Part shown: piece by piece, positions 51,666 through 61,372 of the stretch
Numbering within the stretch: the stretch's first letter is position 1
Layout of the letters: each line of letters opens with the position of its first letter
NCBI GenBank assembly: GCA_000091205.1
Contig: AP006502.2
From: Cyanidioschyzon merolae
Taxonomy: Eukaryota
DNA length: 64,000 nt
Strand: one strand, 5' to 3'
Notes under the pieces: model-generated
Seen by the model: only the letters and a program-made list of their open reading frames with translations
The model's database searches: none
What the model was told of the DNA's origin: nothing
Made by a program: the position numbers and the translations under genes

Positions 51666-53003
51666 TCAAAGGAATAGTTGACGCACTTGGGCGTAAACTT
51701 CATCCACAGAGCGTTCTGCTGGGATGCGATGCACGCGCATGCGGCGTTCTAGAAACTCTATGACTGGCATGGTCGTCTCTATAAAAGTGCGAAAGCGCTT
51801 GCGAATAGATTCAGGATTATCATCGGTACGGCCGCTGCTGCGACTGCGCTGCAGGAGGCGGCGCTCCATTTCGGCTTCGGAACACTCGAAGAAAAGGCAA
51901 AAATCAGCGCGGCGGAGTAGACACTCAAAATCTATGGCTTGATCCAATGCACGAGGGAACCCATCGATCAACACACCAGGCACTGCGAGGGTGCTACCCG
52001 CATCAACTAGTTTCTTCCGTAAAAGTTCCAACGTGATATGACCGGGCACAATGGCGCCTTGGCGAATCATCTCGTCAATCAGCTGGCCCTGTTCGGACTG
52101 AGTCTGGATCTCAGCGCGCAGCAGATCACCTGCTGAAACATGCCAAAAACCAAACTCGGCGACGAGTCGGGCGCACTGGGTACCCTTGCCGGCGCCTGGG
52201 CCGCCGAGTACGAAAACCAACCGAGGCGGCAGACGCGCATGACCCTGCAACGAGGCAGCTTCCTGGAGGTACGCACCAAGCCACTCCAAGGGCTGCGCTG
52301 GCTGCGCCATACAAAGTCGGGATAATGCGGTCGTAAGCGTCTCTAGTACGGTGGAGCTCAAGTACGACTTTGCAGCGGAGCCTCCACCGGCCACTTGCTC
52401 GCCGACGACGCGCACTCGTTCGTATATGCGCTCCACTTCTGTTGCATCGTGGAAGCATTTCGCAAGATCACTCGTAATTTGCGTTACATCCCGACTGGTC
52501 CAGACCCCACAGTGCGCCTTATCCACGCCGAAAAGCGCACGAAGGCTTCGGGGCGCCAGGGCGCGGGCTTCAGCGGGGTCTACGGGTCCGCACAACTCGA
52601 GCCACCGTTTCCAGTCTGTCGCCGAAGTCTGCTCCAGAGGCGTTGCCTCTTCGTTCGACAGGAACACCATCTCGACAGGCGGAGTCGCTCTGCGAAGCAC
52701 GACGATCTCAGAACGCCCTTCACACAGCGCAGCGACGTGTTGTTCGTTGTGCACCTCATCGTCTGGGGCAGGCGTCGTGGTCTCGGCGGGCTCAGGTGAA
52801 AGCAGCGCACGCGCTCGTTCGGGCGTCCAGACGACGGTCTGCCGCGCAACCTCGGTCCAACCGTCTGTCTTTCGTGCGTACGCCAGAATCGGATCTTTTC
52901 GATAAAAAGCTTCCGGCTGAATAACGAGCAGCACAAAACCCGGCCAAGTCGTTCGTTGCGTCATATGCAGTGCAGCTTTGTGGCTGGAGCAGAAATACGG
53001 CAA
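51666..53003 (-). CDS. NME5-like nucleoside-diphosphate-kinase domain + Dpy-30 motif + adenylate/UMP-CMP kinase domain (flagellar-type multidomain nucleotide kinase)
   Basis: 445-aa ORF. The N-terminal region follows the NDK fold pattern: 'GFVLLVIQPEAF', 'WLELCGPVDPAEARALAPRSLRALFGVDKAHCG' (cf. LLGPTDP..A....SLRA.FG.D..NAVHGSDS). Then 'VLETLTTALSRLCMAQPAQPLEWLGAYLQE', a Dpy-30-like motif. Then a complete P-loop kinase: 'VFVLGGPGAGKGTQCARLVAEFGFWHVSAGDLLRAE', 'GAIVPGHITLELLRKKL', 'LIDGFPRALDQAIDFE'. Confidence 0.7.
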   Translation of the reverse strand: MPYFCSSHKAALHMTQRTTWPGFVLLVIQPEAFYRKDPILAYARKTDGWTEVARQTVVWTPERARALLSPEPAETTTPAPDDEVHNEQHVAALCEGRSEIVVLRRATPPVEMVFLSNEEATPLEQTSATDWKRWLELCGPVDPAEARALAPRSLRALFGVDKAHCGVWTSRDVTQITSDLAKCFHDATEVERIYERVRVVGEQVAGGGSAAKSYLSSTVLETLTTALSRLCMAQPAQPLEWLGAYLQEAASLQGHARLPPRLVFVLGGPGAGKGTQCARLVAEFGFWHVSAGDLLRAEIQTQSEQGQLIDEMIRQGAIVPGHITLELLRKKLVDAGSTLAVPGVLIDGFPRALDQAIDFECLLRRADFCLFFECSEAEMERRLLQRSRSSGRTDDNPESIRKRFRTFIETTMPVIEFLERRMRVHRIPAERSVDEVYAQVRQLFL

Positions 53004-53101: not shown

Positions 53102-53270
53102 AGCTATATCCCGTTTTGTACTGTATCGCATTCGCGCATCCCCGCATGCGCAGCGTGCATCCCCGGCATGTTGAGTTGATTCCTGAGATAGCTATATCCC
53201 GTTTTGTACTGTATCGCATTCGCGCATCCCTGCATGCGCAGCGTGCATCCCCGGCATGTTGAGTTGATTC
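53102..53270. repeat. Tandem repeat, about 88-bp period x 2
   Basis: 'agctatatcccgttttgtactgtatcgcattcgcgcatccc[c/t]gcatgcgcagcgtgcatccccggcatgttgagttgattc' occurs at 53102-53182 and 53190-53270. It lies in the divergent intergenic region between the NDK-AK gene and the LysM gene. Confidence 0.9.
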
Positions 53271-54634: not shown

Positions 54635-57010
54635 ATGTGGGTGGTCTTTGTGAATCAAGTAAGGCGCACGCATGATGGAATTGATGTATCGAGCCGTGGA
54701 CGCTGGTACTTAAATGCGAACAAGCTCCGGTGCAAGCGGGCTCGGTCGCTTGCGTATATGACTGTTGTTCGCAGCTTGCCACGGCCACCGGGCTTCTACG
54801 TGACGACGCAGGATGGTGACACGCTTGCGAGTATCGCGTCACGCTATGGCATTGACGCGAAACGTGTTTGGGAGCTGAATAACCGCGCTTCGCGTTTAGA
54901 GTTTAAGCGTGGCAAGTTCCCATTTCTCCCTGGTTTGAAACAGCACGAGGTTTCGAGGCAAGCGCCTTCAGGTGGCGTATCCCTAGAGGAGGCGCTGGAG
55001 CGGCCACTATGTTCTGGGCAACGCATCTTTGTACCGAATGAAACAGTTGCACAGACTGCAAAAGGCGGTAACCTCCATGGGGCTTCCTTGCGCCAAACGG
55101 CACCTCCAAAAACAGTCGAAGCACCTCCGGTTACCCGGACGTTTGTTCCTCCCAAGGCACAGACCACTCCGCAACAGAAATCTTCAGCAGCGATGGGTGC
55201 TCCATCCGCGCCACCGGCCAAGGGTGTCCCGGTTGTAGAGCAGCAGGCACTGCCGCCGTCACCACCATTACAGGGTACGCTCGTTGGCTCGGTTGGGACA
55301 ACGGATTTCTTCCTGGGCGTCTTCGCGGTGCTCGTTGGATTTTATTCGGCGAAGATGATGCTGCCGCGGTCGAATACCGAACCCGGAACGCAGCCAAAGA
55401 CCTCACTCCTAAAGGCCTTGTATAAGAGGCTCGTGGGCTTTCTACAGGCCATGATTACTGTTGCTGTTTTGATTGGGCTCGCGGCAGGCGCGCTAGGCGC
55501 TCGCCTCCGAGCGGCGCTGCTGTTCATCTTTAACGCCTGCACGATACTCTTACGTGGCGTATCGCAGATGATCGTCCTCTTCGGCCAGTTCATGTGCGGC
55601 ATGCTCGGTGTCGTGGCGCTTGCGGTTCAGGGTGTCGTTCAACTGTTCCAACGGCTTGCGCAGGCGGCATTCTTGCTGATCGCGTCGATTTTTTTGGTTA
55701 CGTGGCAGAGCGCGGTACGTCTCTGGTCGGCAGCCTCTACGCGTTCGAGCGCAGTACTAGAGAACATCACCCAGCGCGGGCTGTCACCATCGCTGCCCTC
55801 GGCGGAAACAGGATTGTGGTCTGTACCAGATGAGCGCTCTTCCTCCGTCGACCAGACGGCATCCGAGTCGTTCTTTGGGCTCATTCGGCAATTTTTCTCG
55901 CGGGATTCGGGAAGCGATCTCATTCGCTGCGTTCTTCGTGAACGCACCCAGATCTCGGACGCCTTCGTTCGAATGCGATTCGATCTTCCGGGACCCGACG
56001 ACCAGCTAGTTCTCCAGATGGGTCAACGCATCGAAGTGCATGTTCAGAAAAGCCGCCAAAGTCTCTGGAGTGACGTTCAGCCCCTTGATCAAGCGGAATC
56101 TTCTTGTGGGCTTGGAGCAATCAGGCCGCACCTGCTAGCGGTCGCCAGTGATCGCCATCAGCCTGGTAGCTTCGAGATCATAGTGCCCGTGTCGCACGCA
56201 CTGCAGCAAGTGCTTTGGGAAGCGAGCGACGCAGATAATGCGACGCATTCGGCTGCCGCTGCTCCAATGGACGCCGAGTACGATGGTGCTTTCAGTACAG
56301 GAAGCGATGTCCAGGTCCTGGAGCGGCCATCTACCTCCGACCACGTATTCTCGGCGACGTGCAGTGCAAACAATGACGAGTTCGACGAGCATTTCCTAAT
56401 CGCGCTTGAATCCCTTGTGGAAGGTGTTGATGCTATCCGCGTTCGACCAGCCCCGAATACGGAGCTCATCTACCGTCGCGCGATGAATCCCTCCGCTGGG
56501 ACCGTTGTGGTGCATAACGTTGTGCTCTTAGCATGCGGTCTGGGCATTGTATCCGCGGTGCGCATCGCCGACGAACTCCTACAAGACTCCGAGTCCGCGG
56601 TGAGCCGCATCACGCTAATCTATTATAACGAGCGCGCCCGAGATTTCATCCTCCTCGACGACTTGGAGCGCATGAGCAAAGACCATGGTGAGCGATTCCG
56701 CCTCCATTGTGTTTGGAATGAGAACGCTGGCGCGTACCTTGCCAGCACAGGATTCCCCCGAGCTGCAACGGCTTCCGCTGGTGCGGGTACAAGCGCAACC
56801 GTCGCTGCCGCCGCAGCCAGACGCAACGGCTACGGCCGTGAAAGACGCGCGGCACAGCCGGTGCCTGCTACCGTCCGGGTGATATCGGCCATACCAGCGT
56901 GGACGGAAGGTACAATGGCCATTATCAGCGGGAACGAGTCATTCTCCCAAGAAATGTGGTACGCCTTGGGGGACTCGGGTTACCCGGAGGACGCGATCAC
57001 CTTCATATAA
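54635..57010 (+). CDS. Multidomain membrane protein: N-terminal LysM, polytopic TM region, C-terminal FNR-like FAD/NAD(P)-binding oxidoreductase domain
   Basis: 791-aa ORF. LysM: 'YVTTQDGDTLASIASRYGIDAKRVWELNN'. About four hydrophobic helices lie between residues 230 and 370. C-terminal NAD-binding-like 'TVVVHNVVLLACGLGIVSAVRIADELLQDSE..RITLIYYNERARDFILLDDLERMSKDHGERFRL' (cf. cyt-b5-reductase MIAGGTGITPM...LLFANQTE.DILLR.ELE) and end 'MAIISGNESFSQEMWYALGDSGYPEDAITFI'. No His pairs typical of ferric-reductase heme domains were seen. The FNR call is moderate. Confidence 0.55.
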   Translation: MWVVFVNQVRRTHDGIDVSSRGRWYLNANKLRCKRARSLAYMTVVRSLPRPPGFYVTTQDGDTLASIASRYGIDAKRVWELNNRASRLEFKRGKFPFLPGLKQHEVSRQAPSGGVSLEEALERPLCSGQRIFVPNETVAQTAKGGNLHGASLRQTAPPKTVEAPPVTRTFVPPKAQTTPQQKSSAAMGAPSAPPAKGVPVVEQQALPPSPPLQGTLVGSVGTTDFFLGVFAVLVGFYSAKMMLPRSNTEPGTQPKTSLLKALYKRLVGFLQAMITVAVLIGLAAGALGARLRAALLFIFNACTILLRGVSQMIVLFGQFMCGMLGVVALAVQGVVQLFQRLAQAAFLLIASIFLVTWQSAVRLWSAASTRSSAVLENITQRGLSPSLPSAETGLWSVPDERSSSVDQTASESFFGLIRQFFSRDSGSDLIRCVLRERTQISDAFVRMRFDLPGPDDQLVLQMGQRIEVHVQKSRQSLWSDVQPLDQAESSCGLGAIRPHLLAVASDRHQPGSFEIIVPVSHALQQVLWEASDADNATHSAAAAPMDAEYDGAFSTGSDVQVLERPSTSDHVFSATCSANNDEFDEHFLIALESLVEGVDAIRVRPAPNTELIYRRAMNPSAGTVVVHNVVLLACGLGIVSAVRIADELLQDSESAVSRITLIYYNERARDFILLDDLERMSKDHGERFRLHCVWNENAGAYLASTGFPRAATASAGAGTSATVAAAAARRNGYGRERRAAQPVPATVRVISAIPAWTEGTMAIISGNESFSQEMWYALGDSGYPEDAITFI

Positions 57011-57344: not shown

Positions 57345-57415
57345 ACGACGGACACGCATGCAGACACGCATACATGCAGACACGCATGCATGCAGACACG
57401 CATACACGCATACAT
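57345..57415. repeat. Imperfect (ACGCATRCAG)n microsatellite
   Basis: 'gacacgcatgcagacacgcatacatgcagacacgcatgcatgcagacacgcatacacgcatacatg' in the convergent intergenic region at 57.0-57.6 kb. Confidence 0.8.
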
Positions 57416-57577: not shown

Positions 57578-60500
57578 CTAGGAATGCGTTCGAGTGGGCG
57601 GCATCGCTGCCCCATTGTTGCCGCGCGGCGGAGAAGAAGCCATCTGCTCGAGCGCTTCAAGCTCCGCTACGGTGTTCACGCCCTCTAGACGCCAGAGAAG
57701 ACCGCTTTCTTCACGAACACAATAAACATCGACGTCATAGCCACAGTCCACTGCCATCTGAACGAGATCAGTGGCGTAGTATTCGAAGCGCTCAGGTACA
57801 GGACTCGAACTGCGCACCCGCTGGTTGCCTTTGTCGACTCGATGCGGTAGCGACGCTGCAAGGAGCTGCATCGAAAGCGCACGATCCACCACCATGATGC
57901 CGGAGTAGAATTCTCGAATGGCCAGGATCTGGGCGCCGTCTGGTCGCTGCAGGGCCTCGCGATACTCCACAATGGCGCGCAGGGCGCCGCTCTGGGCGTC
58001 GCGAACAACGCGTCCATAGGCGCCCGCGTCTCTGGACGTATAGCATCCGCTCAAAATGACGCCGAACGTCTGCGATGGCCCGTTTGGATGGGCCGCTGCC
58101 TCACGCTGACGGCTTCGTTGATCTAGCAGTGGTTCCAGAATCGCAGAATCTACCCCTGGATTATCGCCGTAGAGCACGAGTATGTCACCGGAGAACGTCG
58201 AAAGCGTCGAGCACAGGGCCGCATAGAGGGCGTGGCCGGTCCCGAGCGGCTGGCTCTGGCGAACCAGGAGGTACGGGAGCGCGTCAAGCGCTGTTCGGAT
58301 AGCGCCTTCGACAGACTCGTTGCCGACCACGACAGTCGGTATTCCCATGGTGTGGAGCGTCTCCACCACATGTCGAAGCATGGGTTTGCCACAGAACGAA
58401 TGCACGACCTTGGGGTACGCAGCGCGGAACCGAGTACCTCGTCCCGCGGCGAGCACGATACCGACCACAGCAGCACTTTGGAGTTGCGCTTGCCAGGCGG
58501 ATGCTGGCCCCAACTCGCCAGCGTCTGCCTCAGCCAAAAGCGCACCAGCTACTTCCAAATCGCCCAATCTCGAGGTTTCCGCCAGGCGAATGCCGAATGA
58601 ACCACTTTCAAGGTGTCGGAGTTCATTCTCTGACAGCGACGTGGCCACCTGCTCCAAGATTTGTCGAAGCCGCGACCGCAGCAGCCTTTCTAGCCGACGG
58701 GCGAGCGTTTTGGCGACCTCACCCTCCAGGGCGGTTGAACTGACTTCCACGCGTATCCGCCAGAACGGCTGTGTGCGCGACGGACGTACCAGCACGCTCA
58801 CAGCGTCCTCAATCGACACATCTGGAAATTCCAGCTGAATCCGTTGTAGTTGCTCATCGATGAGGGCCGTTTGCACCCATTCCGGATCTAAGACGCGAGT
58901 TTCGTCTGCAGTGTAGCGCCAGTTTGCTGCGGCGTAGCGACTCGCCTGGCGCAGAAGCGGTGTTTCCATGTCATGCTCTGTGAGCTGCGCGTTCACCACT
59001 TCGCTGTGTCCAGCCGAAGCAAACACCTCTAAACGTTCTAATAAATGCGTGACTGGCTCCGTACGAAGCAGCGCCTCCATCGTAAGTAAGGTGGCAACGC
59101 CGTCGCTGCCCGCGGGGTTCGCCAATCGCGCCAACGATACGATGCATTCAGCAGCGTACCGCGCTTCCCGCGTCAGGGGCGTGCTCACGTCCCGCAACAA
59201 CAACTCGTAGAGCTGACGCTGCACCAGAGGTGCCACGTAACAACCAACATGTCCATTCGGCTCGGCATAGACGGCGAGATTAAAGCAGCGCTCGACGATA
59301 TCGCGGCCGTACTGAGCGCCTGTGGGCACCAGCACCAGGTTGCCATCGCAGAGCGCACGGATTCGCTCGCGATACACACGTCTGCAGTAAGCTGTTAGCG
59401 CACAGCCGAACGATAGTCGGGGCAGTACTTGTATGGGTGTAGTTGTTGTTTCCGGGGCCGCCACGAGCAACTGGACGCAGCGGCGCAGGAATGCAACCAA
59501 ACAGAGCGCTATCCAGTCACCGTCGTAGACTACGATGGATGAAATCGATGATGCCTCTTTCGTTCGACCCGCTGAACGCTGCTCGGATGATGCGTAGTAG
59601 ACCAGGCGATCCGCATCGCCGTCCAGAGCCGCCATGCGGTCGCCCGACACGAGACAACGGAAGTCATCGCCGTGTCCAGCGTGCTGGTGGATGTACTCAG
59701 CCCCGCAGCGCTCGTTCACGGCCTGCGACTCCTCATGTCGATGCGTCGTGCTCAGCGGAAACGATAATAGCGATGATACCTCCGCAAGCACCACCGAAGC
59801 TGATCCATATGCGCAATCAACTCGAAGTCTCGTCGTCGAGTCGACTGCGCCCGATCCAGTCACCTCGGGATCCCGTTGCAGCGCTCGACAAAGCGCATGG
59901 TACCCTTTGACGAGCCGTTCGTGGACATAGGCATCAAAGGTACTCAATCGTCCATTTTGCGATGCCCAGACTGCGTACTGCGTGAATGGTGTGGTGGTGA
60001 GGCCCAGATTTCGCACCCCCGAGCACTGCGTCGCTCGTAGCAAGACTTCTAAAGCTACCTGTGCGAGACGAGCGGAACTCGGACGATTGTCGTAGCCGAG
60101 GATGACGACACCACCGCGCCCGGACTTGTCGTCGATGCTTGAGCCTGCCGCTCCCGGGAGAGTCGCGGTTTTCTCGGCGGCGGCCGGTTCCCTGCCATGA
60201 AGCATTCGATGCGCTAGGCGGTGGAACAGGGAACCAAGAGCCACAGCCCTCGGTGCATGAATCGGTACCGTCAGCGTTTCCACGTTCATTCCGTCGAAAG
60301 AGTCGTTATTCGCGGAATCTGTTGGTGGTGCCAGCGTCTCCTGCAGCAGGTCTGCGAAGAACTCTCCCAGCAAGGGGTGCGGCGTATCCTGGAGGTGCGC
60401 TTGCAACAGACCCCCGTCGCTGCGCACAACCTTGACGCCGTTCTCACTTGACGGGTTGTGGGAAGCAGTTATCATCAGGCCCAGTACACACTTTCGAAAA

Positions 60501-61372
60501 GAAGCGACCAGCGCGACGACAGCTGCGGCTCGGGCGACAACAGCGTCCAAAGCGGGTCCGTCGCGTACGCGGACGCCTGCACCGGTATAACGCACGGCTT
60601 CTGTGAGCGGGTATCGATTGGAAAGCCAGTTTGCGAGCTCGTGAAAGGGATAGGGAGAAGCATCGGTCGTGTTTAGACATTGACCGGCTTCGGAACGTTC
60701 CCCTAACGAGCAGAGCGTGGCACGTCCGACACCGCCAGCGAGCTTGCAGGGTCGCAACCGCACGCTGCGAGGCGGTGCGCGACCACGGAGCCTAGTTTGG
60801 TGCCTCGTTATAGGACGAAGCTGAGGCGAAACCGTTCGTCGACTTGCAACCAGGGCCAAGTCAGGGACCAGGCCGCTTGCCCCGAACATGAAGTGTACTC
60901 GGTGCGAAAAATCGATGGCGAGCGTCATCGCCTGTGCGCACAAGCTCACTGGCGATGTTCGCTTAGGACCCGTCCCGTTCCGAATAACTTCCTGTTGGGT
61001 TCCGCATGAAAGATTTCCTGCTGGACGCTGTGATCTTCGTTGTGTCGAGAGGGTTCCGTGGGAGCTTGGACTTTGGGTGCAGTTATGGAATACGGAGACC
61101 AGTGGGGCTATGCATAGACCCCTGCAAACAAGTGCTGAGCATTTCCAGGAGGAATCGTATGCGCGCGCAGTCTGTTGCAGGTTCGGTGGACGCCCATTCG
61201 TGGTCAGCGCTTTCTCGGGTATGAGTAGCGTCGCATGCTGCCCGTTCGCCCTTGTTGAAGAGCCGGAACTCGACACGCGAGGAAGCGTCGACTCAACGAT
61301 GGATCCGATTGTTCTGAAAACGTACATATATGTACAATGGACAGATCGCTGTACTGTAATGCGTGCGCGCAC
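57578..61372 (-). CDS. Fusion protein: phosphoacetylglucosamine mutase (AGM1/PGM3-type) + GlmU-type N-acetylglucosamine-1-phosphate uridylyltransferase domain (no acetyltransferase LbH domain)
   Basis: 1264-codon uninterrupted ORF. AGM1 part (about residues 240-900): 'RYTGAGVRVRDG', phospho-Ser loop 'GLMITASHNPSSENGVKVV', 'ERCGAEYIHQ', 'ALDGDADRLVYY', 'YDGDWIALCLVAF', 'AVYAEPNGHVG', 'SVLVRPSRTQP'. C-terminal part (about 935-1230): 'VGIVLAAGRGTRFRAAYPKVVHSFCGKPMLRHVVETL', 'RQSQPLGTGHALYAAL', 'GDILVLYGDNPGVD', 'DAGAYGRVVRD', 'EYYATDLVQMAV', 'LEGVNTVAELEALEQM', which is the GlmU N-terminal nucleotidyltransferase fold. The first 150-240 residues of the track ORF may be 5' read-through; alternative starts are near 60928. 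Confidence 0.8.
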   Translation of the reverse strand: MRARITVQRSVHCTYMYVFRTIGSIVESTLPRVSSSGSSTRANGQHATLLIPEKALTTNGRPPNLQQTARAYDSSWKCSALVCRGLCIAPLVSVFHNCTQSPSSHGTLSTQRRSQRPAGNLSCGTQQEVIRNGTGPKRTSPVSLCAQAMTLAIDFSHRVHFMFGASGLVPDLALVASRRTVSPQLRPITRHQTRLRGRAPPRSVRLRPCKLAGGVGRATLCSLGERSEAGQCLNTTDASPYPFHELANWLSNRYPLTEAVRYTGAGVRVRDGPALDAVVARAAAVVALVASFRKCVLGLMITASHNPSSENGVKVVRSDGGLLQAHLQDTPHPLLGEFFADLLQETLAPPTDSANNDSFDGMNVETLTVPIHAPRAVALGSLFHRLAHRMLHGREPAAAEKTATLPGAAGSSIDDKSGRGGVVILGYDNRPSSARLAQVALEVLLRATQCSGVRNLGLTTTPFTQYAVWASQNGRLSTFDAYVHERLVKGYHALCRALQRDPEVTGSGAVDSTTRLRVDCAYGSASVVLAEVSSLLSFPLSTTHRHEESQAVNERCGAEYIHQHAGHGDDFRCLVSGDRMAALDGDADRLVYYASSEQRSAGRTKEASSISSIVVYDGDWIALCLVAFLRRCVQLLVAAPETTTTPIQVLPRLSFGCALTAYCRRVYRERIRALCDGNLVLVPTGAQYGRDIVERCFNLAVYAEPNGHVGCYVAPLVQRQLYELLLRDVSTPLTREARYAAECIVSLARLANPAGSDGVATLLTMEALLRTEPVTHLLERLEVFASAGHSEVVNAQLTEHDMETPLLRQASRYAAANWRYTADETRVLDPEWVQTALIDEQLQRIQLEFPDVSIEDAVSVLVRPSRTQPFWRIRVEVSSTALEGEVAKTLARRLERLLRSRLRQILEQVATSLSENELRHLESGSFGIRLAETSRLGDLEVAGALLAEADAGELGPASAWQAQLQSAAVVGIVLAAGRGTRFRAAYPKVVHSFCGKPMLRHVVETLHTMGIPTVVVGNESVEGAIRTALDALPYLLVRQSQPLGTGHALYAALCSTLSTFSGDILVLYGDNPGVDSAILEPLLDQRSRQREAAAHPNGPSQTFGVILSGCYTSRDAGAYGRVVRDAQSGALRAIVEYREALQRPDGAQILAIREFYSGIMVVDRALSMQLLAASLPHRVDKGNQRVRSSSPVPERFEYYATDLVQMAVDCGYDVDVYCVREESGLLWRLEGVNTVAELEALEQMASSPPRGNNGAAMPPTRTHS

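Follow-up and report, generated by a model that had tools for sequence, protein, structure and literature searches.

CMT084C of Cyanidioschyzon merolae combines a LysM domain with a predicted membrane-anchored cytochrome b5 reductase-type module

Gene and domain architecture

We analysed a 64,000-nt stretch of the Cyanidioschyzon merolae genome (contig AP006502.2; hereafter the window) and focus here on one open reading frame (ORF) on its plus strand, at positions 54635–57010. The ORF is free of interruptions and is 100% identical along its full length to CMT084C, which is annotated as a hypothetical protein. The encoded protein consists of an N-terminal extension, a LysM domain, a Pro-rich linker, a membrane block and a C-terminal module with an FNR (ferredoxin reductase-type) fold. 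The features are as follows, with coordinates in the window, residue numbers in the protein and, where structure prediction contributed, AlphaFold2 (AF2) named as a source.

54635–57010, plus strand: whole ORF, 791 amino acids and TAA stop; CMT084C of C. merolae 10D
54635–54757, plus strand: N-terminal extension, residues 1–41 (MWVVFVNQVRR...RSLAY); putative plastid-type organellar presequence, not a signal peptide
54791–55042, plus strand: LysM, residues 53–136, predicted β-α-α-β fold (Pfam PF01476 and AF2)
54884–54994, plus strand: ~37-residue insertion, residues 84–120, in the LysM α2-β2 loop (splice test)
55043–55294, plus strand: Pro/Ala/Thr-rich linker, residues 137–220, poorly conserved and predicted to be disordered
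55298–55363, plus strand: predicted transmembrane helix TM1, residues 222–243 (TTDFFLGVFAVLVGFYSAKMML), followed by a conserved 'LPRS' (conservation and hydropathy)
55421–55726, plus strand: hydrophobic block, residues 263–364, with 2–4 further predicted membrane or amphipathic helices; weakly conserved, no His, no cofactor-ligand pattern
55727–55915, plus strand: Ser-rich juxtamembrane linker, residues 365–427, with a conserved 'LWSAASSRS' at its start
55916–56464, plus strand: predicted FAD-binding-type β-barrel subdomain of the FNR fold, residues 428–610 (Pfam FAD_binding_6, AF2, Foldseek)
56264–56371, plus strand: predicted disordered insertion 1, residues ~544–579, Cyanidiaceae-specific (predicted local distance difference test (pLDDT) <50; absent in Galdieria and ochrophytes)
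56492–57007, plus strand: predicted NAD(P)H-binding Rossmann-type subdomain, residues 620–791 (Pfam NAD_binding_1 below cutoff, PDB profile, AF2, Foldseek)
56735–56857, plus strand: predicted disordered Ala/Arg-rich insertion 2, residues ~701–741, largest in C. merolae

An initial annotation, made from the letters of the window alone, had described the order LysM, membrane helices and FNR-type reductase as an unfamiliar architecture. This order is real. Relatives of CMT084C at 38–51% identity occur in Cyanidiococcus yangmingshanensis, in Cyanidium caldarium and as one further Cyanidiaceae sequence, and the module order is kept in all of them and in a protein of Galdieria sulphuraria (GJD07951.1). 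In an exhaustive hidden Markov model (HMM) profile search of 1.84 billion representative proteins, end-to-end matches to CMT084C came from the Cyanidiaceae alone, and the LysM-membrane-reductase architecture was found in Cyanidiophyceae and in no other protein. Because the Galdieria protein (477 amino acids) has a LysM-like segment without interruption, then one transmembrane helix and then the reductase module, the architecture spans the whole class. The earlier worry that the ORF might be a chimera of two genes can be laid aside: a chimera or mis-assembly is ruled out by an architecture common to five orthologues, the Cyanidiaceae relatives keeping the same module order. We conclude that CMT084C is a genuine protein restricted to Cyanidiophyceae.

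The C-terminal module has a cytochrome b5 reductase-type fold

Pfam FAD_binding_6 barely reached its gathering score on CMT084C (21.3 bits against 21.1). The Galdieria orthologue lies above both Pfam cutoffs, with 32.2 bits for FAD_binding_6 and 43.6 bits for NAD_binding_1. A search of PDB sequences with the single CMT084C sequence (phmmer) matched cytochrome b5 reductase (b5R) at E 1e-3, and a four-sequence family profile matched b5R proteins at E 5e-7. An ncbifam scan gave only far-sub-threshold matches, to FNR-type reductases (PaaE, BenC) and to LysM proteins.

Structure prediction was consistent with these matches. An AF2 model of the C-terminal module, built on a 25-sequence family alignment, had a predicted template modelling score (pTM) of 0.74 and a pLDDT of ≥90 at 186 of 370 residues; the disordered stretches that it predicts at about 485–491, 544–579 and 701–741 are specific to the Cyanidiaceae. 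In a Foldseek comparison with the PDB, the top 21 matches were all NADH-cytochrome b5 reductases or nitrate-reductase FAD domains (E 4e-14 to 3e-11), with target-normalised template modelling (TM) scores of 0.53–0.77, or 0.68–0.77 without two longer Ncb5or entries. The best of these had TM scores of 0.70–0.77 at E 4e-14 to 1e-11. Classical FNRs, phthalate dioxygenase reductase, NqrF and the NOX dehydrogenase domain followed at lower ranks. Because the model is confident and the top 21 matches all belong to the b5R and nitrate-reductase group, the assignment of the FNR fold is solid, and the FNR-type FAD/NAD(P) module of the initial annotation is borne out by the family profile and by Foldseek (best E 4e-14). 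We conclude that the C-terminal module is, on the predicted structure, a divergent FNR fold of the NADH-cytochrome-b5-reductase type.

The pyridine-nucleotide and flavin motifs differ in conservation

Cofactor motifs were judged against a canonical nitrate-reductase module from the same profile search (P0148), and counted over 57 relatives from outside the Cyanidiophyceae. The nucleotide-binding motif GxGxxP is kept at its first Gly in 49/57, at its second Gly in 54/57 and at its Pro in 53/57, and the Asn of the strand that follows it ('NE') in 55/57. In contrast, RxY(S/T) retains its Arg in 3 of the 57 and its Ser/Thr in 1. Its aromatic position is kept in 50, and a Pro follows the aromatic in 41. 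The Ser/Thr of GxxS is kept in 12/57, with the glycines lost, and the Cys of CGxxxM in 9/57, Ser or Ala mostly standing in its place.

The C. merolae sequence itself has R497-P-H-L-L at the position of the flavin motif RxY(S/T), or H-x-L-A in an alternative alignment, the alignment near R497 being ambiguous by two residues; Galdieria has G-S-Y-L-L. The pyrophosphate-binding GxxS is likewise lost, its C. merolae equivalent being E-H-F-L587 (D/E-E/H-F-L587). 'VPVSHALQQVL' was considered as this equivalent and rejected, since the nitrate-reductase alignment and the AF2 secondary structure put the corresponding helix at 583–592, after the insertion.

In the Rossmann subdomain, the Gly-rich turn 'GLGIVS' had been read as nucleotide-binding, and it does correspond to GxGxxP (G635-L-G-I-V-S640), although the replacement of Pro by Ser is found in C. 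merolae alone, orthologues having GLGIVP. This subdomain also carries 'YNERARDF', S765-G-N-E ('SGNE') in the position of CGPP, and a C-terminal GYPEDAITFI. The terminal aromatic Phe that had been singled out is not a feature of the family, as orthologues have Leu. Thus, of the 'cytoplasmic flavin reductase' proposed initially, the FNR fold and the NAD(P)H motifs hold, whereas flavin reductase activity is not assured, RxY(S/T) and GxxS being degenerate. Judged from the alignments, the pyridine-nucleotide half of the module looks functional and the flavin half atypical.

The module belongs to a clade otherwise found in ochrophyte algae

The next-best tier of matches in the HMM search (E 1e-24 to 1e-10) aligned to the C-terminal module only, yet it scored far better than canonical b5R and nitrate reductase, which reached about 1e-6. 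Named members of this tier are Galdieria sulphuraria GJD07951.1 and proteins of Phaeothamnion, Tribonema, Ectocarpus, the diatom Helicotheca, Mallomonas and Fibrocapsa. Common to all family members are the signatures CTL[RQ]ER, GxGIxP, [WY]xNE..DF and a C-terminal GYPEDxIxxL. The ochrophyte proteins lack a LysM domain, and consist of a conserved 'VSLDRPLLP'-type motif, one transmembrane helix and the reductase module. No bacterial relatives appeared in the profile searches beyond generic LysM repeats. The bacterial ancestry suggested initially is therefore not upheld: the nearest relatives of the module are eukaryotic, namely ochrophyte algae and then cytochrome b5 reductase and nitrate reductase. 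We conclude that, by sequence relationship, the CMT084C module represents the red algae in a clade of b5R-like proteins with an N-terminal membrane anchor, the other members of which come from ochrophyte algae.

As a separate observation, the motif '[VL][SA][LI]D[RQE]P[LV][LI]' lies shortly upstream of the single transmembrane helix in nearly all members from outside the Cyanidiophyceae (for example P0009, P0013–P0015 and P0020). It could mark a mature N-terminus or a processing site.

The LysM domain is complete but interrupted by a loop insertion

With the whole of CMT084C as query, Pfam PF01476 scored 24.9 bits (gathering score 20.9) over residues 57–83, covering profile positions 2–28. The LysM region in isolation scored 29.2 bits, and 36.3 bits with residues 84–120 removed in silico, the match then extending over profile positions 2–43 of 43. 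Because removal of these residues restores a full-length profile match, we conclude that the LysM is complete but split by a loop insertion of ~37 residues; the last LysM strand, 'LCSGQRIFVP', lies downstream of it at 125–134. Hence, the N-terminal LysM recognised initially is confirmed, but it is a split one. The AF2 model places a strand at 53–57, helices at 64–70 and 75–83, and a strand at 130–134, with moderate confidence (pLDDT 63–81). This is the only part that we used of a full-length model built on five sequences, whose mean pLDDT was 42.

The insertion is found in Cyanidioschyzon, Cyanidiococcus and Cyanidium and is absent from Galdieria. The Galdieria LysM segment scored 18.5 bits, under the Pfam cutoff of 20.9, yet matched profile positions 2–43 of 43. 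The plant LysM1 and LysM3 Pfam models match the CMT084C domain weakly. In LysM domains generally, the α2-β2 loop, which here carries the insertion, borders the usual glycan groove.

Membrane region and topology

TM1 is the sole strongly conserved membrane helix, the columns from D224 to R245 being invariant in five Cyanidiaceae sequences. The initial annotation had counted about four transmembrane helices; the membrane block stands, but the count is uncertain, with the one strongly conserved helix at 222–243 and 2–4 weak helices. It had also seen no bis-His heme motifs of the NOX/FRE type, in agreement with our finding of no His in residues 216–372, a range that covers the hydrophobic region 222–364. 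With no His in the membrane block, heme sites of this type are absent.

Hydropathy indicates a single transmembrane helix in the Galdieria orthologue and in the ochrophyte relatives. Because these proteins have one helix, we infer that the N-terminal part and the reductase module, and with them LysM and reductase module of CMT084C, lie on opposite faces of the membrane. This arrangement would also hold for C. merolae if its helices are odd in number, and four helices would put LysM and FNR module on the same side.

The N-terminal extension resembles an organellar presequence

The N-terminus of CMT084C is basic, with 9 Lys and Arg against 2 Asp and Glu in residues 1–45, has Phe at position 5, and contains no hydrophobic stretch resembling a signal peptide. 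An extension of exactly 41 residues and the start 'MWV[VI]F' are common to three Cyanidiaceae species; the remainder of the extension diverges freely, with no stop or frameshift, and the strongly conserved core begins at M42 ('MTVVRSLPRPPG'). The Galdieria N-terminus is likewise basic and poor in acidic residues, with its Phe at position 2. Precursors of red-lineage plastid proteins bear an N-terminal Phe motif (PMC2222254), to which Phe5 of the Cyanidiaceae and Phe2 of Galdieria correspond.

The relatives of the reductase module give a similar picture. A junction of a small residue and Phe directly after an N-terminal hydrophobic region was detected by a simple script in at least 17 of the 42 relatives that have such a region, against a background of 15.5% per 15-mer, and several further cases are visible by eye. 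Such junctions match 'ASAFAP', by which proteins destined for secondary red plastids are marked (PMC4329603). Moreover, the named members of the reductase-module clade come only from red algae and from algae with red-derived plastids, which is the pattern expected for a plastid-associated protein inherited via secondary endosymbiosis. On these features, CMT084C would be an organellar protein, and most probably one of the plastid. The absence of a signal peptide and the presequence-like basic extension also argue against a plasma-membrane receptor, and the LysM described initially as extracytoplasmic is more likely placed on the far side of an organelle membrane.

Genomic neighbourhood

CMT084C lies tail-to-tail with a 1264-codon ORF on the minus strand (57578–61372), a phosphoacetylglucosamine mutase (PGM_PMM_I, AMG1_III, PGM_PMM_IV) fused to a C-terminal MobA/GlmU-like nucleotidyltransferase (NTP_transf_3), so that two steps of UDP-N-acetylglucosamine (UDP-GlcNAc) synthesis would sit in one polypeptide. 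The same fusion (1089 amino acids) adjoins the orthologue in Cyanidium caldarium (L001 10550–13819). Functional coupling between CMT084C and this gene was considered and rejected: the adjacency belongs to a general synteny of the block, which includes an NDK-Dpy30-ADK kinase, TGT and MCM8, and it is not seen in Galdieria, where the neighbour is MCM8. Because the whole block is syntenic, we draw no functional inference from adjacency. The microsynteny itself (TGT, MCM8, NDK-Dpy30-ADK) survives the deep split between Cyanidium and Galdieria.

The kinase of this block is encoded on the minus strand at 51666–53003, in a 445-codon ORF with an NDK-like segment, a Dpy-30 motif and an adenylate kinase domain, and is conserved in Cyanidium (L001 896–2161). 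The NDK/Dpy-30/adenylate kinase architecture is usually that of ciliary or flagellar kinases, yet red algae are not known to have flagella. Upstream of CMT084C, an unusually long intergenic region (~1.6 kb) contains an 88-bp unit in 1.9 copies at 98% identity (53102–53270), and the 570-bp tail-to-tail spacer downstream holds a short (GCATACAC)n / 16-bp microsatellite-like array (57351–57414). The C. merolae ORF is intronless; the Galdieria gene evidently contains intron sequence, as 1587 nt span its 477 codons. G+C content is fairly even over the 64-kb window (50–62%), with no compositional island at the CMT084C locus, and ARAGORN found no tRNA genes in positions 1–64000.

Discussion

The reading that we tentatively prefer, while giving it somewhat less than an even chance, is that CMT084C is an organellar, probably plastid, membrane-tethered protein with an NAD(P)H-binding b5R-type module on one face and the LysM on the other. 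The protein would enter an organelle, most probably the plastid, and become embedded in a membrane. Its module would face the stromal, nucleotide-containing side, a placement suggested by the availability of NAD(P)H there, and the LysM the opposite side, in the intermembrane space or lumen. The module may be an NAD(P)H binder that either delivers electrons to an acceptor at the membrane, by way of a flavin held in an atypical manner, or senses redox state; the LysM might tether or position the protein by binding a glycan of the GlcNAc type or a protein partner.

Several points weigh against this. NAD_binding_1 scores 17.2 bits on CMT084C, below its gathering score of 22. Flavin motifs are degenerate throughout the wider family, and C. 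merolae also has Ser for the Pro of GxGxxP, which together make catalytic competence doubtful. The number of transmembrane helices in C. merolae is ambiguous, from 3 to 5, and the charges flanking the helices in C. merolae and Galdieria conflict, so that a positive-inside analysis gives no consistent orientation. The early Phe is missing from the Cyanidium N-terminus. Mur genes have not been found in C. merolae (PMC3398972), which makes peptidoglycan improbable as the ligand, and a LysM inside a red-algal plastid where the genes for peptidoglycan synthesis are absent has no obvious ligand (PMC3398972). Finally, CMT084C is not mentioned in the literature that we searched, supplements included. 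A literature search for LysM combined with cytochrome b5 reductase gave nothing relevant, and the combination appears to be undescribed, though each domain belongs to a textbook family.

The degenerate motifs could also mean that the b5R-like module holds no flavin at all, and that it acts solely as an NAD(P)H-binding or scaffolding domain, for example as a redox-state sensor or adaptor, that transfers no electrons. We rate this as rather unlikely, although it is a serious rival in view of the motif counts: the flavin residues are not conserved (Arg and Ser/Thr of RxY(S/T), the Gly-rich GxxS, and the Cys of CGxxxM with its frequent Ser or Ala), the NAD(P)H motifs persist, FAD_binding_6 hardly passes its cutoff, and a large disordered insertion occupies the loop before the helix that replaces GxxS. 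Set against it are the retention of the aromatic that stacks on the isoalloxazine ring in 50 of the 57 relatives (His takes its place in the Cyanidiaceae), the Pro next to it, and a predicted β-barrel with pLDDT >90 that superposes on FAD-bound b5R structures. Flavin motifs differ in other branches of the FNR superfamily (NOX, for instance, has HPFT), and loss of the motif is therefore no proof of loss of flavin.

Two further alternatives place the protein elsewhere in the cell. In the sensor envisaged by the initial annotation, read as a protein of the plasma membrane or endoplasmic reticulum (ER), an external LysM would detect a glycan of the wall or the environment, and the reductase module in the cytosol would give a redox output, possibly in a walled diploid stage. 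The domain order fits such a sensor, and it stays in play on account of a 2026 study, according to which 10D is a haploid strain without a wall, the diploid of the same life cycle being walled, and in which wall-related redox enzymes (RBOH) were diploid-biased (PMC13353863); Cyanidiophyceae do have a walled diploid phase. We nevertheless judge it improbable. The N-terminus lacks a signal peptide, and the first transmembrane helix comes after some 220 residues, a folded domain among them, which is unfavourable for N-out insertion into the ER; the extension resembles a presequence, and relatives of the reductase module have plastid-type presequences. The UDP-GlcNAc fusion gene next door in C. 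merolae and Cyanidium would speak for a surface role, but that adjacency is part of the wider TGT, MCM8 and NDK-ADK synteny and does not extend to Galdieria. In addition, the wall is reported to be largely proteinaceous, and CMT084C goes unmentioned in the text and supplements searched of that study (PMC13353863).

The remaining possibility seems to us the least likely of these: CMT084C would be an Mcr1-type NADH-cytochrome b5 reductase anchored in a mitochondrial membrane, and its LysM an addition specific to the lineage. In favour of this, yeast Mcr1 likewise carries a presequence and a hydrophobic anchor along with its b5R domain, the nearest solved structures are NADH-cytochrome b5 reductases, and a basic N-terminal extension alone cannot tell mitochondrial from plastid targeting. 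However, ochrophyte relatives with a signal peptide and an 'ASAF'-type junction are of the plastid type (PMC4329603), the distribution over red algae and red-plastid algae fits a plastid-associated protein, and the canonical b5R flavin motifs are absent.

If that reading is true, a lineage-specific membrane-tethered NAD(P)H module is added to the poorly known redox inventory of red plastids, with relatives of the module occurring in diatoms, brown algae and other ochrophytes of ecological importance, and the question arises of which ligand a LysM has where the plastid no longer contains peptidoglycan. Going further, red-lineage plastids might have in CMT084C a membrane redox component that has gone unrecognised: a stromal b5R-derived NAD(P)H module that in Cyanidiophyceae is coupled across the membrane to a LysM. 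Placed in the intermembrane space or lumen, this LysM would have survived from the wall-binding toolkit of cyanobacteria and been repurposed, in a peptidoglycan-free plastid, for another envelope glycan or partner. Through such an arrangement, an envelope or division structure would be tied to the redox state of the stroma. We offer this full scenario as speculation and consider it quite unlikely. The family also offers a natural example of an FNR fold in which the pyridine-nucleotide site persists and the classical flavin motifs are lost, and is useful for asking how the fold tolerates drift of a cofactor site or becomes a pseudoenzyme. What raises CMT084C above an ordinary lineage-specific hypothetical protein is that the fusion of its domains is unusual and ancient, that its LysM is likely to be organellar although peptidoglycan is missing, and that its cofactor site is degenerate in part. 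C. merolae is genetically tractable through homologous recombination.

Among known systems, NOX/FRE proteins (Ferric_reduct, FAD_binding_8 and NAD_binding_6) share with CMT084C a polytopic membrane region and a C-terminal FNR-type module, and the SpNOX dehydrogenase domain is matched at Foldseek rank 31. CMT084C differs in having no His in its membrane block and a predicted structure closer to cytochrome b5 reductase, and a Pfam scan of it gave no match to Ferric_reduct or FAD_binding_8. Animal LysMD3/4 (type II) and the plant LysM receptor kinases and receptor-like proteins resemble it in having a single LysM N-terminal to a transmembrane helix. CMT084C is set apart from these eukaryotic membrane LysM proteins by its lack of a signal peptide and of a kinase, by its reductase-fold C-terminus and by the 37-residue insertion in the LysM loop.

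The nearest relatives of the module are ochrophyte 'cytochrome b5 reductase domain-containing' proteins (for example Tribonema minus KAG5190314.1, Ectocarpus CAM9434211.1 and a Helicotheca MMETSP transcript), which have the family signatures, the degenerate flavin motifs and the upstream transmembrane helix in common with CMT084C, and differ from it in having bipartite signal and transit presequences, no LysM and no large insertions. The best matches in sequence and structure among characterised proteins are NADH-cytochrome b5 reductase (CYB5R3, yeast Cbr1/Mcr1 and Physarum b5R; PDB 1i7p, 1umk, 7rom and 2eix) and the FAD fragment of nitrate reductase (1cnf, 5yly). CMT084C shares with them the two-domain FNR fold, GxGxxP and the 'N-[EQ]' strand motif, and, with b5R, the placement of a catalytic module C-terminal to an N-terminal membrane anchor. 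Identity to these proteins is just 12–17%, the RxY(S/T) and GxxS motifs lack conservation, and CGxxxM has Ser in place of its Cys; unlike b5R, CMT084C carries an N-terminal LysM and extra hydrophobic helices, together with the three disordered insertions of the Cyanidiaceae.

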